Virus record (IMG/VR): IMGVR_UViG_3300025653_000030
Coordinates: 10,500-74,499 of that record
Direction: 5' to 3' (one strand)
Length of the DNA: 64,000 nucleotides
DNA from: a virus
Lineage: Duplodnaviria; Caudoviricetes
Shown here: piece after piece, positions 4,096 to 36,669 of the stretch
How the letters are laid out: the number at the start of each line of letters is the position of its first letter
Position numbering within the stretch: the stretch's first letter is position 1
Translations under genes and position numbers: made by a program
The notes under the pieces: generated by a model
What the model was told of the DNA's origin: nothing
Databases searched by the model: none
What the model saw: the letters and a program-made list of their open reading frames with translations, nothing else

Positions 4096-5496
4096 ATGGC
4101 ACTAAATAAATTTGGAAAAGATTCGGGCATCTTCGGATGGAGAAGGAAAAGAGAAAGTAGATTAAGGAGTAGACCTATTCAAGGAATTACACCTCCACCT
4201 CCCCCTGCCAATATTACACCCCCACCCCCACCACCAAGTAGTAAGAACGATGGTGGTAAAAAGGCAGGTGGTAGTGTAAGTAAACAAGTAAATAGACCAA
4301 CTCAAGCAAAGACAATTCCTGTTTCACCAATTCAATCAACATCAGCGATAAAATCAAATTCATCCTTACCTTATGTACAAAATCCATATCCAGCAGACAT
4401 AGGATTAGACCCAAGTGCGTATTATACAGCCGATGGTAAGGATATAAAATTTACAGGCAAATATCCTGATAACTTTTTAACATTTACTGAAGTGCCAGTT
4501 GGTGATATAACCGCTGTATCTGGTATCAACATTAACTTTATTGTAAAGTTTAGTGATGGAACTTTTTATACATCACCACAATTTAAAGGTATATTAGAAG
4601 CTGAACAAAGGTCAAGAAATCCATATAAAAACAGAAACACAGTTCCTACTATCAATATAGATTCTAATTTCTTAACCTCATATGCTGGAAAAAATAAATT
4701 CAAAACACCTGAAGATTATGCAGAAGTTTCTGTAACAAAAACAATATCATCAAAACAAGATATATTAACACACATCAATTGGTTAGTAGGTCCTGGTGAA
4801 ACACTAAGAGAGGCAAAAGAGATTGGAAGTTGGAGTGTTGAAAAAACTGAACAACTTGGGATGGACCACCAACCTGCATTAGATGCATTGGAAGGACAAG
4901 AAAGAATACAATCAGCTGAAGAACCAAATGTAGAAGTAGATGTAACAACGGCTTCAGACCCAGTCCCAACTACACCAATAGAAACTGATAACAATGAAGG
5001 TAATGATACAGCAACAACACCAACGGGAGATTCAACACCCCCACCTCCACCAAAACCTACACCAGACCCATTACCTCCACCACCTCCACCGCCACCGATA
5101 GTACCTCCGTTTAATGTGAGTGTACCTCCAATGACAGGTGGAAAGAAAATTATATGTGGTGAATTGTATAGACAAGGATATCTATCGGAAACAATATGGA
5201 AAGCTGACCAATTGTTTGGAAAGAAAGTATTTAAAACACATCCTCGTATAATGTTAGGATATACTTTTTGGGCAAGAAATGTGGTAAAGTATATGAAGAA
5301 TAATCCACATAGAACTGAGAGATTATATAGATTTTTTAAACCATGGACAGAACATATGGCATACCGAATGGGTGTTGTAGAAAAAGATAACTTGTTGGGT
5401 AATATTACTCATAAAGTTGGTTATGTTATTTCTTTAGTTGTTTACAACTATCACCAAATTAAATGGGGAAGGTTTAAATTTTCGTATGGTAAATAA
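4096..5496 (+). CDS. proline-rich protein with C-terminal GGKKIIC domain (probably virion-associated)
   Basis: Several poly-Pro tracts and a Thr/Asp-rich linker; C-terminal ~115-aa domain starting GGKKIICGELYRQG. Confidence 0.75.
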   Translation: MALNKFGKDSGIFGWRRKRESRLRSRPIQGITPPPPPANITPPPPPPSSKNDGGKKAGGSVSKQVNRPTQAKTIPVSPIQSTSAIKSNSSLPYVQNPYPADIGLDPSAYYTADGKDIKFTGKYPDNFLTFTEVPVGDITAVSGININFIVKFSDGTFYTSPQFKGILEAEQRSRNPYKNRNTVPTINIDSNFLTSYAGKNKFKTPEDYAEVSVTKTISSKQDILTHINWLVGPGETLREAKEIGSWSVEKTEQLGMDHQPALDALEGQERIQSAEEPNVEVDVTTASDPVPTTPIETDNNEGNDTATTPTGDSTPPPPPKPTPDPLPPPPPPPPIVPPFNVSVPPMTGGKKIICGELYRQGYLSETIWKADQLFGKKVFKTHPRIMLGYTFWARNVVKYMKNNPHRTERLYRFFKPWTEHMAYRMGVVEKDNLLGNITHKVGYVISLVVYNYHQIKWGRFKFSYGK

Positions 5497-5836
5497 ATAT
5501 TATAACATAGTTAGTTGGAAAAAGTATCTAATTCCACATACAGATAGAATAAAAAACTTCTTAGATTCGAGAGGAGTAGATGTGTTTACACAAATATCTG
5601 ATATGATAAATAAAGCAAGTATTACAAAACAAAAAGAAGTTGTTCTTGTTGTACATCCACACTTATCAAGTGCTATATCTATAAAAGAAAAAGATTATCT
5701 TGAAGTACTTAATTTGTGTATAGATTTTCTTGCATCAAAAGAACAATATGAAAGATGTAGTAAAATAAAAAAATATAAACAAAATCTAAAAAAGAACAAG
5801 AGTAAAGAATCAAAAACAACCAAAAGTTTAATTTGA
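5486..5836 (+). CDS. hypothetical protein with UvrB/UvrC-like helical motif
   Basis: Start moved to ATG 5486; 'FLASKEQYERCSKIK' resembles the UVR motif. Confidence 0.6.
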   Translation: MVNKYYNIVSWKKYLIPHTDRIKNFLDSRGVDVFTQISDMINKASITKQKEVVLVVHPHLSSAISIKEKDYLEVLNLCIDFLASKEQYERCSKIKKYKQNLKKNKSKESKTTKSLI

Positions 5837-5838
5837 AC

Positions 5839-5847
5839 ATATTTATA
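5839..5847 (+). promoter_or_regulatory. late-type promoter motif ATATTTATA
   Basis: Exact copy in the intergenic gap upstream of 5879. Confidence 0.6.
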
Positions 5848-5878
5848 GAAGTATAGATAAAAAGGATATATCCCACAT

Positions 5879-7834
5879 ATGAAAGGTACATTAATTTCAG
5901 TTGATTTTGTTAAGGATTCAGATGGCAATTATAGATTTGTCGAAATGAATACTGATACTGCAGCCTCAAACAACTTTATAAATACTCATTTAGATTGGAG
6001 TGAACTAATTGCTTGGTTTACATCAACACCAGAATTAGAATCAAGTGTTGATACTGTTGGTGTTGTATTTAAAGAAGAAATACATCGTAATTTAGTAAAC
6101 TCATTATCTCAATCAATACACACAAACCTTGGAGACCAGATTACTACATGGGTTGAAGAATCGGAAGATATTGATACTATCTATCCAACCACAATAGAAG
6201 ATAATTATAACAAAATGATTATTAGAATGGCCTATGATGAAAACGCCATTCTTGATTCAACTTATTGTAAAAACGCATCTAATGCACTTGAATTATTTGT
6301 AGATAATGATGATAGTGGTAGTTGTGTTAATTTTTATTACTCATCATCAGAAGATGGAGTATATGATAGTTTAGATATATCTGAAAACTCATCACCATTT
6401 CCTGATTTCGTTTACAAACATAAAACACCACACAATAGTGTTCAGTTTGGAAAGATACCTCATGTTTCTGACTCTGCAACATTACAAGAAAGATGGGATA
6501 AGTTAAAAGAATATAGTGCTTCAACAGGTAGTAATGATGAATTATTTATAATGAATTATCATGTTGCTCCATCATACTCTACTGATAATGTTGTTCAATC
6601 ATTAAGACAATATTATATTGTACATGGTGATAACTTATCATTGTTTCATATAGGAAGTCATGTAATTCCTGCTCAATATACATTACCATCAGCATCTGTT
6701 ATTGATACTGCTTCATATAATCAATGGTCATCATCTATTGAAATGATGAGTGGTAGTAATGTAGATGATATACCATATATGTACCCAAGAAAACATTACT
6801 ATGAATACTCAACATCTTTACCAAAAGAAAATAGAGTAAACATGGATGGTGTTTATGAAACAGAACAATTTGTTTCATCTTCAGATGAGAATGTAGTACC
6901 ATGGATGATACCAACTGGCTCTACATTAAAAACAATACATATTGCTGGAATGCCTGATACAGATGTTTCATCAGAATATTTACAATTTTCATATACAGGT
7001 TCTGCTTTACCATCTGGTTCATACGAAACTTCATCGGTAGTTACTTCAGTTTCATGGCAACCAATGAAAACAAATACTTTATTCGAAGTATCTCTTTCTA
7101 ATGATGATAAGAAATATTTTGGTGAAGGAGCTGCTGTATTAACATACTCAACATCATCTGATGAAACAAGATTTGAAATTGTAAACACATTAGAAGCAGA
7201 TGATAATTACTTTGTTAATAAAGATGGAAATTTAATAGATATAACTTCAGTTAAACATCTTGTTTTCACAGAACCAACCGGTAGTTTTGTAAAGATAGAT
7301 GTTGAATCAACTGATACACTTTTAACTGATGGTAACTATTTCTCGATTGTTGTACACAACGCTTGTTTTGTAGAAGGTACAACTATATCTTTATCAAATG
7401 GAGATACTAAAAACATTGAAGATATTATTGTTGGAGATGAAGTTCTTTCATATAACGAAGAAACTAAAGAAATAGAAAGTAAAAAAGTAATAGGTACACA
7501 AACACCAAACCATACTAATTTAGTTAAATATAAATTATCAAATGGAACTGAATTAGTTTGTACACATGACCATCCATTCTACATTGAATGTGATGCTAAA
7601 GATTTAGCTTCATTTAAACCTGGTAAAACTCTTTCAAGATACAATTGGAAAGATGATAGAGTTGCTTTAATAGAGGTTGGTGATAATCTTTATGATTCAA
7701 ACTTAGAACCAGTAACTATTGAATCGATAGAAGATATAAGTAATGAAACAGTTAAAACATTTATATTCCAAGTAGAAGATAATAGTAACTTCTTTGCAAA
7801 TGGAATATTAACACACAATAAAGGACAGGTATAA
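5879..7834 (+). CDS. permuted ATP-grasp-like protein with two tandem Hint-like domains
   Basis: N-terminal SVDFVKDSDGNYRFVEMNTDT; internal …IDVESTD…IVVHN directly followed by ACFVEGT…IVGDEV…CTHDHPF…NFFANGILTHN. Confidence 0.75.
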   Translation: MKGTLISVDFVKDSDGNYRFVEMNTDTAASNNFINTHLDWSELIAWFTSTPELESSVDTVGVVFKEEIHRNLVNSLSQSIHTNLGDQITTWVEESEDIDTIYPTTIEDNYNKMIIRMAYDENAILDSTYCKNASNALELFVDNDDSGSCVNFYYSSSEDGVYDSLDISENSSPFPDFVYKHKTPHNSVQFGKIPHVSDSATLQERWDKLKEYSASTGSNDELFIMNYHVAPSYSTDNVVQSLRQYYIVHGDNLSLFHIGSHVIPAQYTLPSASVIDTASYNQWSSSIEMMSGSNVDDIPYMYPRKHYYEYSTSLPKENRVNMDGVYETEQFVSSSDENVVPWMIPTGSTLKTIHIAGMPDTDVSSEYLQFSYTGSALPSGSYETSSVVTSVSWQPMKTNTLFEVSLSNDDKKYFGEGAAVLTYSTSSDETRFEIVNTLEADDNYFVNKDGNLIDITSVKHLVFTEPTGSFVKIDVESTDTLLTDGNYFSIVVHNACFVEGTTISLSNGDTKNIEDIIVGDEVLSYNEETKEIESKKVIGTQTPNHTNLVKYKLSNGTELVCTHDHPFYIECDAKDLASFKPGKTLSRYNWKDDRVALIEVGDNLYDSNLEPVTIESIEDISNETVKTFIFQVEDNSNFFANGILTHNKGQV

Positions 7835-7836
7835 TC

Positions 7837-7995
7837 ATGGCAGTACAAAAATCAGAAATACAAAATCATGTTTATCGTTCAAAAGAAAACGGTACAGTAT
7901 CAGCAAATATCACAGCGGTAAGTAACAGCGAAGTAACTTCATGTAAATCAGTTGTTACAAACTTAATGACATATATTATCGCAAAACACTCTTAG
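7837..7995 (+). CDS. 52-aa peptide MAVQKSEIQNHVYRSKENGTVSANITAVSNSEVTSCKSVVTNLMTYIIAKHS
   Basis: Clean ORF starting 2 nt after the 5879 stop and filling the gap; below the track cutoff. Confidence 0.7.
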   Translation: MAVQKSEIQNHVYRSKENGTVSANITAVSNSEVTSCKSVVTNLMTYIIAKHS

Positions 7996-8010
7996 TAAAT
8001 TAACTCTTCT

Positions 8011-8019
8011 ATATTTATA
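8011..8019 (+). promoter_or_regulatory. late-type promoter motif ATATTTATA
   Basis: Exact intergenic copy upstream of 8039. Confidence 0.6.
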
Positions 8020-8038
8020 TTCGTAAAGATGTTACTTT

Positions 8039-8593
8039 ATGGATACAACTAAGATACTACAACTAAAACTTACAAAAGAAAGTTTAGTTCCTTTTGAAAT
8101 CTTGGAAGATTATAAAATAGTTTTGGTAAATAAAGAAAACTATAATACTTATCTTCGTGAACTTTCCTATGTTTCACATTTAATGAAACAAGACTTCGAT
8201 TGGGTTGGGATTCCTGATGAACTTATGTTACATAGTAGGTTCGAAACACACAACTCTTCAGTACATTTATTTTACTACAACCATTCACCAATTGGTTGGA
8301 TGTGGGGTAATCCAAACCACACACCACTTTGGGAAGAAATGTATCAACCACTTAAGCCAAATGAGATGTTTGTTGGTGGTGCATTTGTTACTCAAAAATT
8401 AAAAAACAAACCAAAAGGATGTGGAGTTAGTATGTATCATTTAACTCTAAAAAAGTTTTTAGAGTATGATGGAGTTGATTGTTTGTATTCACATGCTGAC
8501 ACTTGGAATGATAAATCAATTCATATTTGTTATAAAGTGGGTTGGTATGATTTTAATTTTATAAAGGAGAATAATGGCAACACAGAACATTAG
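8039..8593 (+). CDS. GNAT-family N-acetyltransferase-like protein
   Basis: FVGGAFV…PKGCG (motif A-like) and WNDKSIHICYKVGW (motif B N..S....K.GF-like). Confidence 0.6.
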   Translation: MDTTKILQLKLTKESLVPFEILEDYKIVLVNKENYNTYLRELSYVSHLMKQDFDWVGIPDELMLHSRFETHNSSVHLFYYNHSPIGWMWGNPNHTPLWEEMYQPLKPNEMFVGGAFVTQKLKNKPKGCGVSMYHLTLKKFLEYDGVDCLYSHADTWNDKSIHICYKVGWYDFNFIKENNGNTEH

Positions 8594-10474: not shown

Positions 10475-10560
10475 GCCAAAGTGGTGGAACTGGTAGACAC
10501 GAGGGACTTAAAATCCCTTGAACAGTAATGTTCGTGTGGGTTCGATTCCCACCTTTGGTA
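10475..10560 (+). tRNA. tRNA-Leu (anticodon TAA)
   Basis: Acceptor GCCAAAG/CTTTGGT, arm AGGGA-CTTAAAA-TCCCT, long variable arm. Confidence 0.95.
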
Positions 10561-10568
10561 CAAGATAT

Positions 10569-10642
10569 GGCTCCGTAGCTCAGTTGGATAGAGCATCTGC
10601 CTTCTAAGCAGACGGTCAAAGGTTCGAATCCTTTCGGAGTCA
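10569..10642 (+). tRNA. tRNA-Arg (anticodon TCT)
   Basis: Acceptor GGCTCCG/CGGAGTC, arm TCTGC-CTTCTAA-GCAGA. Confidence 0.95.
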
Positions 10643-10646
10643 CTAA

Positions 10647-10720
10647 GCTCTCATAGCTCAGTTGGTTAGAGCACTTCACTCATAATGAATAGGTCATAGG
10701 TTCGAGTCCTATTGGGAGCA
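10647..10720 (+). tRNA. tRNA with CAT anticodon (elongator Met, or Ile2 if lysidine-modified)
   Basis: Acceptor GCTCTCA/TGGGAGC, loop CTCATAA; no initiator GGG/CCC anticodon stem. Confidence 0.9.
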
Positions 10721-10752
10721 CCTAAAAAACTCAAAAATAATTCACTTTTTGC

Positions 10753-36660: not shown

Positions 36661-36669
36661 ATATTTATA
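36661..36669 (+). promoter_or_regulatory. late-type promoter motif ATATTTATA
   Basis: Exact intergenic copy. Confidence 0.6.

Follow-up and report, generated by a model that had tools for sequence, protein, structure and literature searches.

Eukaryotic glutathione synthetase is the textbook permuted ATP-grasp enzyme. Human glutathione (hGSH) synthetase, YgiC/YjfC and Cp1B have been grouped as structural relatives, with R139, D141, E163 and N165 as conserved residues of Cp1B (PMC12568646), and the RefSeq product name of YgiC is peptide--spermidine ligase. Enzymes of the YgiC/GspS class couple the terminal carboxylate of a peptide or an acid to an amine (RefSeq name; PMC12568646). Among the BIL domains, which have the Hint fold, BIL2 forms an isopeptide between a lysine epsilon-amine and the C-terminus of its upstream domain (PMC8616854). 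Here we describe a phage locus in which, judged from structure models, a ligase domain of the first kind is fused to Hint domains of the second kind and is followed by the gene of a small basic protein. The locus lies in a stretch of 64,000 nucleotides (nt) from a virus of the Caudoviricetes (positions 10,500 to 74,499 of IMG/VR record IMGVR_UViG_3300025653_000030, here called the window); the source is a viral record of 74.5 kb with a CheckV completeness of about 43%. In the models the phage protein shares with YgiC/YjfC, GspS, trypanothione synthetase, eukaryotic glutathione synthetase and the fungal Cp1B an ATP-grasp whose Mg/ATP strands (D...E-x-N-x-D-T) stand ahead of the remaining domain.

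Three open reading frames (ORFs) of 651, 52 and 184 amino acids (aa) follow each other on the plus strand at 5879-7834, 7837-7995 and 8039-8593, and the second starts 2 nt past the TAA stop of the first. A preliminary description had given these ORFs, the 2-nt gap and the N-terminal motif with its spacing, and all of them were found as described. The 651-aa protein begins with MKGTLI-SVDFVKDSDGNYRFVEMNTDT, in which the string cited earlier corresponds to residues 7-27. The start codon of this ligase gene is secure, because an in-frame TAA lies 18 nt upstream and M1-K2-G3-T4 are invariant, or nearly so, in relatives. We are very confident that the protein has a three-domain architecture, namely an ATP-grasp domain, a degenerate Hint domain and an intact Hint domain. 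The family was defined by relatives of the N-terminal ~494 residues; 8,000 candidates were scored, and over 176 proteins (clustered at 90%) were assigned to it. Relatives of the ligase were found in 112 IMG/VR loci, of which 80 were fetched (contigs up to 326 kb) and 56-57 distinct loci were compared.

Domain architecture of the 651-residue protein

Two AlphaFold2 (AF2) models, one of the whole protein (predicted local distance difference test, pLDDT, 84.8) and one of residues 1-494 (pLDDT 85.1; predicted template modelling score, pTM, 0.79), were both searched against the PDB. On these models residues 1-317 (5879..6829, plus strand) are assigned to a circularly permuted ATP-grasp ligase domain of the glutathione-synthetase/GspS/YgiC class. 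The best VIA-align match was the glutathione synthetase-like 5oeu (Z 9.5 over 231 aa), further matches were E. coli GspS 2io7 (Z 8.9) and YgiC 7uka (Z 8.7), and trypanothione synthetase and Cp1B were also among them. At least ten ATP-grasp enzymes aligned with Z 7.3-9.5 over 191-231 residues, and nothing comparable was otherwise obtained for this part of the protein. Foldseek gave YjfC and YgiC at E 6-7e-6, with matches up to 1e-4 that included glutathione synthetases. Enzymes of the permuted class align from residue 1; the classical ATP-grasps (ArgX, RimK, LysX/ArgX, TTLL11, DdlA and PurD) reach Z 4.8-6.4 and align only from residues 55-58. The N-terminus of the ligase carries the invariant motif D9-x12-E22-x-N24-x-D26-T27 (alignments of 57-66 relatives; D9, E22 and N24 also in an alignment of 26 sequences), and the Asp-Glu spacing of 13 is found in DdlB as well. 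The alignment from residue 1 and the invariant motif at the N-terminus are as predicted by circular permutation. The invariant residues of the whole domain are D9, E22, N24, T25, D26, K65, R116, Y119, D126, Y129, K180 and H306. It was proposed earlier that the protein begins with a permuted ATP-grasp-like domain; this passed the fold check by AF2 with VIA-align and Foldseek, and the E-x-N-x-D-T motif aligns with that of YgiC.

Several results speak against this assignment. The comparison of the phage domain with E. coli YgiC by hhalign had a probability of only 8%, although the stretch that aligned was the D...E-x-N-x-D-T motif. No ATP-grasp or GSP_synth model was significant on the window protein or on the contig (Pfam, NCBIfam, PF03738), and the ATP-grasp Z-scores of 8-9.5 are middling by VIA-align's own scale. 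YgiC and glutathione synthetase moreover have ~95-145 N-terminal residues that are missing from the phage domain and may hold substrate-binding elements. Residues 1-317 matched no Pfam, PHROG or NCBIfam model, and the sub-threshold matches to sequence models in 57 relatives were single ones, ATPgrasp_ST with E 0.039 and R2K_3 with E 0.1.

The relatives of 916 aa (P0099-P0101) have an insertion of ~190 residues at a loop that is disordered in the window protein (residues 281-291, pLDDT <50), which suggests that this loop can accommodate a whole extra domain.

The second domain, residues 320-494 (6836..7360, plus strand), was recognised as a Hint fold by structure alignment and is named Hint0 here. 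It aligned with the C. thermocellum BIL domain 2lwy with a VIA-align Z of 17.7 and a root-mean-square deviation of 1.6 Å over 138 aa, and residue 324 of the model aligned with residue 1 of seven inteins. This position 1 is Gly324, nearly invariant in relatives, and the nucleophile is absent. The block-B His is absent too, and E476, D479 and the terminal H493-N494 are retained, the last pair being invariant. A profile of the N-module of Hint0 alone matched BIL2 (E 0.007), and a jackhmmer profile seeded with Hint detected the Hint0 region in 87 of 178 relatives. Curated sequence libraries detect only the C-terminal Hint of the 651-aa protein, and Hint0 had gone unrecognised before. The Hint protein of the preliminary description stands as to its C-terminal Hint, but two Hint domains are present and not one.

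A single-residue spacer, Ala495 (7361..7363, plus strand), separates the terminal His-Asn of Hint0 from the Cys1 with which the following Hint begins. The spacer at this place in relatives is AP in 48, none in 38, SP in 15 and A in 8. Residues 491-495 have a pLDDT below 50 and form the sole disordered junction in the model.

The third domain, Hint1 (residues 496-647; 7364..7819, plus strand), is intact and was found by Pfam, NCBIfam and Foldseek. Pfam gave Intein_splicing with E 8.8e-13 (residues 503-647) and PT-HINT with E 3.4e-9, and the NCBIfam models intein_Nterm and intein_Cterm matched as well. It has Cys496, the block B residues T562-x-x-H565 and the terminal H646-N647. Foldseek aligned it with BIL2 6y75 at E 2e-12 with a template modelling (TM) score of 0.87-0.89 and 27% identity, and with 2lwy at 30% identity; BIL2 and the BIL domain of C. 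thermocellum account for all of the five best structural matches (26-30% identity). Hint1 departs from a canonical intein in that both the Cys/Ser/Thr +1 residue and a spliceable C-extein are absent: only four residues come before the stop, the tail K648-G-Q-V (7820..7834 with the stop, plus strand), with Lys at +1. With its intein-like blocks, its terminal His-Asn and no +1 nucleophile, Hint1 is of the BIL type. A structure search of BFVD returned Hint matches and unnamed proteins only.

The number of active Hints behind Hint0 varies in the family. According to hidden Markov model (HMM) counts in 178 distinct proteins, there are none in 14, one in 56, two in 91 and three in 17. The last His-Asn is followed by Lys in 129 and by Arg in 4 proteins (133 of the 164 that bear such Hints) and never by Cys, Ser or Thr; the terminal His-Asn is absent in the other 31. 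In one sub-lineage (P0075) a Peptidase_S74-type self-cleaving tail (PF13884) takes the place of the Hints. The variation from zero to three active Hints, together with this replacement, means that the trailing domains are dispensable and of self-cleaving types, and the constant unit is the ATP-grasp plus Hint0, with the trailing domains optional. A sub-lineage of ~591 aa (P0033, P0039, P0079 and similar) was also seen, in which a shorter and divergent C-terminal Hint of the Vint/Hom_end_hint type ends in ...NQI without the terminal His-Asn.

No convincing stand-alone form of the ATP-grasp was obtained in a search for shorter forms, which gave fragments plus one protein of 348 aa (on a 2.2-kb contig) and one of 245 aa (on a 112-kb contig), and a search for longer forms found no longer fusions of the ligase. 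The N-terminal part had no match in ~50,700 deposited phage genomes. There was only one ligase match in 185,579 prokaryotic species genomes, and it was on a 2.8-kb contig.

The small basic protein and its possible transcription with the ligase

The 52-aa ORF (7837..7995, plus strand) is a real gene and a conserved partner of the ligase. An homologous ORF of 43-63 aa follows the ligase gene in nearly all of the 57 distinct viral loci, as determined by positional ORF analysis of loci that were themselves found via the ligase. It is mostly 45-55 aa long (~47 aa for the family) and usually begins 2-24 nt past the ligase gene; six further loci had an ORF just below the 45-aa cut-off, which was recovered at a threshold of 30 aa. 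All four Hint-less loci have it too. A tblastn search had found it in only 3 of 80 loci (the 184-aa protein in 10 of 80), and the reading that the small ORF is unlinked was rejected, since positional ORFs and their alignment show a protein that is conserved but too divergent for tblastn. We consider it likely that the ligase and the small protein are functionally paired.

The small ORFs align as a single family. Tyr13 is invariant, position 14 is always Lys or Arg (Arg in 11%), and Arg/Lys23 and Ser/Thr29 are each conserved in 88%. The C-terminal part is a hydrophobic-periodic segment, predicted to be an amphipathic helix, and the protein ends with Lys50 (77%), His51 (91%), one variable residue and the stop. 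Lys makes up 13% of the protein. No Asp or Glu is conserved in the family, the acidic columns reaching at most 57%, and Cys occurs in no copy but that of the window. When 1.84 billion proteins were searched with a profile of the small protein, 234 cluster representatives had E <= 0.001. Those that were listed, 150 in number, are all free-standing proteins of 36-59 aa, with the profile reaching the protein end, or near it, in nearly all, and they have no leader/core repeat structure. The small protein matched no Pfam, PHROG or NCBIfam model and had no usable match in the protein atlas. The idea that it is a split-intein fragment or a C-extein supplied in trans was rejected, because a conserved Cys and Hint-like blocks are both absent.

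The sequence ATATTTATA, a promoter-like motif, is located at 5839..5847 on the plus strand, 31 nt before the start codon of the ligase, and a second copy is at 8011..8019 on the same strand, between the ligase/small-protein pair and the third gene. Both had been pointed out beforehand, as late-type motifs, at 5839 and 8011, where they were found again. The window has 13 copies, all on the plus strand (5839, 8011, 15557, 15597, 31757, 33528, 34432, 36661, 49629, 49671, 51646, 52837 and 59741), against an expected 5.5 +/- 2.2 and a maximum of 11 in 100 shuffles, and every copy stands 10-70 nt before an ORF start. The motif core TATTTATA occurs 16 times on the plus strand versus 6 times on the minus strand. 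Among the distinct loci, 40 of 56 have TATTTATA (or TATAAATA) within 80 nt upstream of the ligase homologue, mostly at 20-35 nt where inspected; a second TATTTATA between the small ORF and the third gene is found in only 7 of 56, in the sub-lineage of the window. The motif precedes non-structural genes (carbamoyltransferase), genes without assigned function and the baseplate region alike, the copy at 36661 being ~1 kb upstream of the baseplate wedge gene. It is probably a promoter element of this phage lineage. The T4 late-promoter consensus TATAAATA has the core TATTTATA as its reverse complement, but in this phage TATTTATA is on the coding strand.

The exact stretch of the window is present in 20 sequencing runs from 18 aquatic studies, and six of these runs are metatranscriptomes. 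In four RNA libraries a single contig spans the junction between the ligase stop and the small ORF. In three of these libraries the contig stops at 7981-8053, ahead of the third gene, and the next contig is 2- to 3-fold shallower. This gives a weak hint that the ligase and the small protein form one transcription unit. In one metatranscriptome contig (run X9) 29 letters without a match come first and the matching part sets in at 5874, 5 nt ahead of the start codon of the ligase; this may reflect a chimeric assembly or the vicinity of a transcript 5' end.

Third gene and surroundings of the locus

The gene in the third position is not constant. In 56 distinct loci it encodes a 2-oxoglutarate (2OG)-Fe(II) oxygenase in 21, a SET domain protein in 16, the family of the window in 8 and others in 11, and in most loci it starts 0-20 nt past the small ORF. 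These families are mutually unrelated (hhalign probabilities of 0.2-6%), and an iterated HMM from the third-gene family of the window recruited no other third genes. The gene trio that was expected to be syntenic in relatives is therefore kept only in its first part: the small ORF is linked in nearly all loci, and the family described as GNAT stands third in only 8 of 56.

The 184-aa protein itself (8039-8593, plus strand) was said to be GNAT-like, for which weak leads were obtained. Pfam Acetyltransf_1 had E 0.15 and 12.8 bits, below the cut-off of 20.7 bits; the best acetyltransferase in a PDB profile search was Ta0821 with E 0.4; and language-model features placed the protein beside GNAT clusters with a score of 0.94. 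From these sequence comparisons a GNAT fold is possible and should be taken only as a lead. The gene is a lineage-specific neighbour outside the conserved module. In the wider neighbourhoods of 57 loci there were 2OG oxygenases in 49, radical SAM enzymes in 23, SET proteins in 21 and carbamoyltransferases in 17, and apart from the small ORF no neighbouring gene holds a fixed position. With PADLOC no match to a defence system was obtained.

The end of the 184-aa gene (8593) is overlapped by 20 nt by the start of a PhoH gene (8574). PhoH is 85-94% identical across the sub-lineage, versus only 30-40% for the ligase, so that these neighbours have strikingly different evolutionary rates. Upstream, a 466-aa protein is encoded at 4096-5496. 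It has several runs of prolines (PPPPP, PPPPPPPP), its C-terminal region is conserved and it had no family match; only 6 of 80 loci have it ahead of the ligase gene. A 132-aa ORF at 5438-5836 overlaps the end of this gene by ~60 nt. It is conserved beside the ligase gene, in most cases immediately ahead of it, in 9 of the 80 loci, and these nine belong to the same sub-lineage (PhoH 85-94% identical). It was considered as the missing piece of the ATP-grasp and rejected, because it is present in only these 9 loci and the ligase N-terminus is invariant after an in-frame stop.

The contig has a G+C content of ~30% and six tRNA genes, which form two clusters, Leu-UAA, Arg-UCU, Met-CAU and Glu-UUC, Ala-UGC, Ser-UGA (10475-10722 and 1155-2310 of the window). 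It also encodes PhoH, a radical SAM enzyme, a methyltransferase, a helicase, a baseplate wedge protein and an SbcC-like nuclease. This gene content fits a large T4-like aquatic myovirus.

Proposed mechanism, rival readings and known systems

Taken as a whole, we explain the locus best as a two-gene phage module in which a ligase modifies the C-terminus of the small protein and the trailing Hints remove themselves, and we give this explanation an even chance. The two genes would be transcribed from their own promoter-like motif. The first would encode a minimal permuted ATP-grasp amide ligase that is permanently fused to Hint0. Because of the Gly at its position 1, Hint0 is expected to be unable to cut at its N-terminus and to stay attached, probably as a structural or substrate-binding domain, and the pTM of 0.79 for residues 1-494 suggests that in the model the two domains have a fixed mutual arrangement. 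With no C-extein and with Lys at +1, Hint1 could only cut itself off. It would do so by an N-S acyl shift giving a thioester at Cys496, followed by hydrolysis and/or Asn cyclisation, and the mature enzyme after the loss of Hint1 would be ~56 kDa. Both the ligase activity and the self-cleavage of Hint1 are inferred here.

The small protein would be the dedicated substrate of the ligase, a role for which we put the chance slightly short of even. The ligase would phosphorylate the C-terminal alpha-carboxylate of the small protein with ATP and then couple an amine, which may be a polyamine, an amino acid or a protein lysine. The C-terminal carboxylate is proposed as the site because an ATP-grasp needs a carboxylate and only this one, after K-H-x, is conserved throughout the family; the coupling of an amine is proposed because the closest structural relatives activate terminal carboxylates and join amines. 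By this analogy a C-terminal amidation or conjugation is our leading proposal for the chemistry, with a chance well below even, and the site at the C-terminus and the identity of the amine are the most speculative parts of the proposal.

Some points are difficult for the proposed ligase module. The small protein may be a regulator or a partner and not a substrate. A purely structural Hint0 does not account for its invariant His-Asn in the Hint-less members, and the upkeep of up to three tandem Hints without cargo is left unexplained. Contigs from RNA libraries are no proof of transcription. The Lys after the final His-Asn is also not explained by the mechanism.

The ligase might instead make a small molecule that helps infection or DNA packaging as an auxiliary metabolite, such as a conjugate of the glutathione or polyamine kind. 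In that case the role of the small protein would be that of a regulator, a chaperone or an unrelated co-transcribed partner, and the Hints would be self-removing pro-domains or selfish passengers. All of the closest structural relatives use small molecules or short peptides, and the neighbourhood is rich in metabolic and tailoring enzymes (2OG oxygenases 49/57, radical SAM 23, carbamoyltransferase 17), which agrees with such a function. We think it unlikely all the same, because the linkage of the small ORF, its tight spacing and its fixed C-terminus across divergent loci (ligases of 30-40% identity) are expected of a dedicated substrate or subunit, and it is the only neighbour with a fixed position.

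Another reading goes further than the two-gene ligase module and supposes a Pup- or ubiquitin-like tagging by the phage. In this case the ATP-grasp would attach the C-terminus of the ~47-aa protein to phage or host lysines or to polyamines, the tag would be tailored by whichever enzyme is encoded downstream (2OG oxygenase, SET methyltransferase, GNAT-like), and the Hints would be pro-domains that destroy themselves after a single use and so set the timing or the extent of the ligase activity. The probability of this full scheme is low.

The best structural matches of Hint1, BIL2 and the C. thermocellum BIL domain, raise the question whether the Hint itself drives a conjugation as in Tetrahymena BUBL/BIL2. 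A lysine on the small protein, on a virion protein or on a host protein would attack and resolve the Cys496 thioester, which would attach the ATP-grasp with Hint0 covalently, and the coupling step would need no ATP. The isopeptide of BIL2 is a precedent (PMC8616854), the small protein is 13% Lys with Lys/Arg beside its invariant Tyr, and Lys follows the final His-Asn in 129 proteins. But 14 of the 178 members are without an active Hint, some of them with a Peptidase_S74 domain, and since the Hint-less loci retain the small ORF, conjugation cannot be the core function of the module; moreover position 14 of the small protein is Arg in 11%. We therefore hold this route to be improbable.

The least probable reading, which we set at a very small chance, is a graspetide/microviridin-like cluster for a ribosomally synthesised and post-translationally modified peptide, in which the ATP-grasp crosslinks side chains (ester/amide) of a 52-aa precursor and the GNAT acetylates it: the order ATP-grasp, small ORF, possible GNAT in the window and the Ser/Thr/Lys-rich small protein recall such clusters, but no Asp or Glu is conserved as acyl donor, a GNAT-like gene of this family, preceded by a promoter motif of its own, stands third in just 8 of the 56 distinct loci, the fold scores of the ligase are higher with the glutathione-synthetase/GspS class (Z 8-9.5) than with RimK (Z 6.0), and the listed small proteins are free-standing, without leader/core repeats and with a conserved C-terminus.

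Returning to the two-gene ligase module, aquatic viromes contain it in abundance, with 112 loci in IMG/VR, no fewer than 178 distinct ligase proteins and 234 small-protein representatives. If the small protein is a substrate, it would mean a new phage post-translational modification or tagging chemistry, and it would offer a compact enzyme-substrate pair for the ligation toolbox. The chance that the module is a new tagging system is modest. Its tandem Hints bear on the purpose of BIL domains without cargo. We found no description in the literature of an ATP-grasp-Hint fusion, of a degenerate Hint as a fixed enzyme domain or of up to three cargo-less C-terminal Hints, and the combination of ATP-grasp, Hint and small protein is absent from curated family libraries.

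Compared with the YgiC/GspS class, the phage domain begins at the first catalytic strand, is fused to Hints, is paired with a ~47-aa protein and is without a significant match to a sequence model. With the BIL domains (2lwy; Tetrahymena BUBL1 BIL2 6y75 and 6tmm) the phage Hint shares the fold, Cys1, the block-B Thr/His, the terminal His-Asn and the lack of Cys/Ser/Thr at +1. It differs from the known ones in its location at the extreme C-terminus without downstream cargo, in its occurrence as 0-3 tandem copies after a degenerate Hint devoid of a nucleophile, and in its upstream partner, which is an enzyme and not a ubiquitin-like domain or a secreted protein.

Graspetide clusters of the microviridin type, whose layout had been suggested for this locus, are alike in that an ATP-grasp gene adjoins a small ORF with tailoring-type enzymes close by. 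The suggestion was not supported: the phage small protein is basic and has no conserved acidic residues, the ligase is by its fold matches of another structural class, closer to ligases of peptide C-termini than to the RimK type, and the acetyltransferase-like gene is not a constant neighbour. The fold matches that were listed included no solved graspetide cyclase.

The pairs LysX/ArgX-LysW, RimK-S6 and TTL/TTLL-tubulin resemble the phage pair in that an ATP-grasp acts on the C-terminal region of a specific protein, sometimes of ~54 aa, and ArgX/LysW, RimK and TTLL11 are among the fold matches of the phage ligase with Z 5.4-6.4. LysW, S6 and tubulin are substrates with acidic C-terminal tails, and LysW has a zinc-binding motif. 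Unlike these, the phage small protein is basic, ends with K-H-x and has no conserved Cys. Taken singly, the components are of known kinds: an ATP-grasp of the GspS/glutathione-synthetase class, BIL domains and, as with LysW/LysX or RimK/S6, a small protein as the partner of the ligase.

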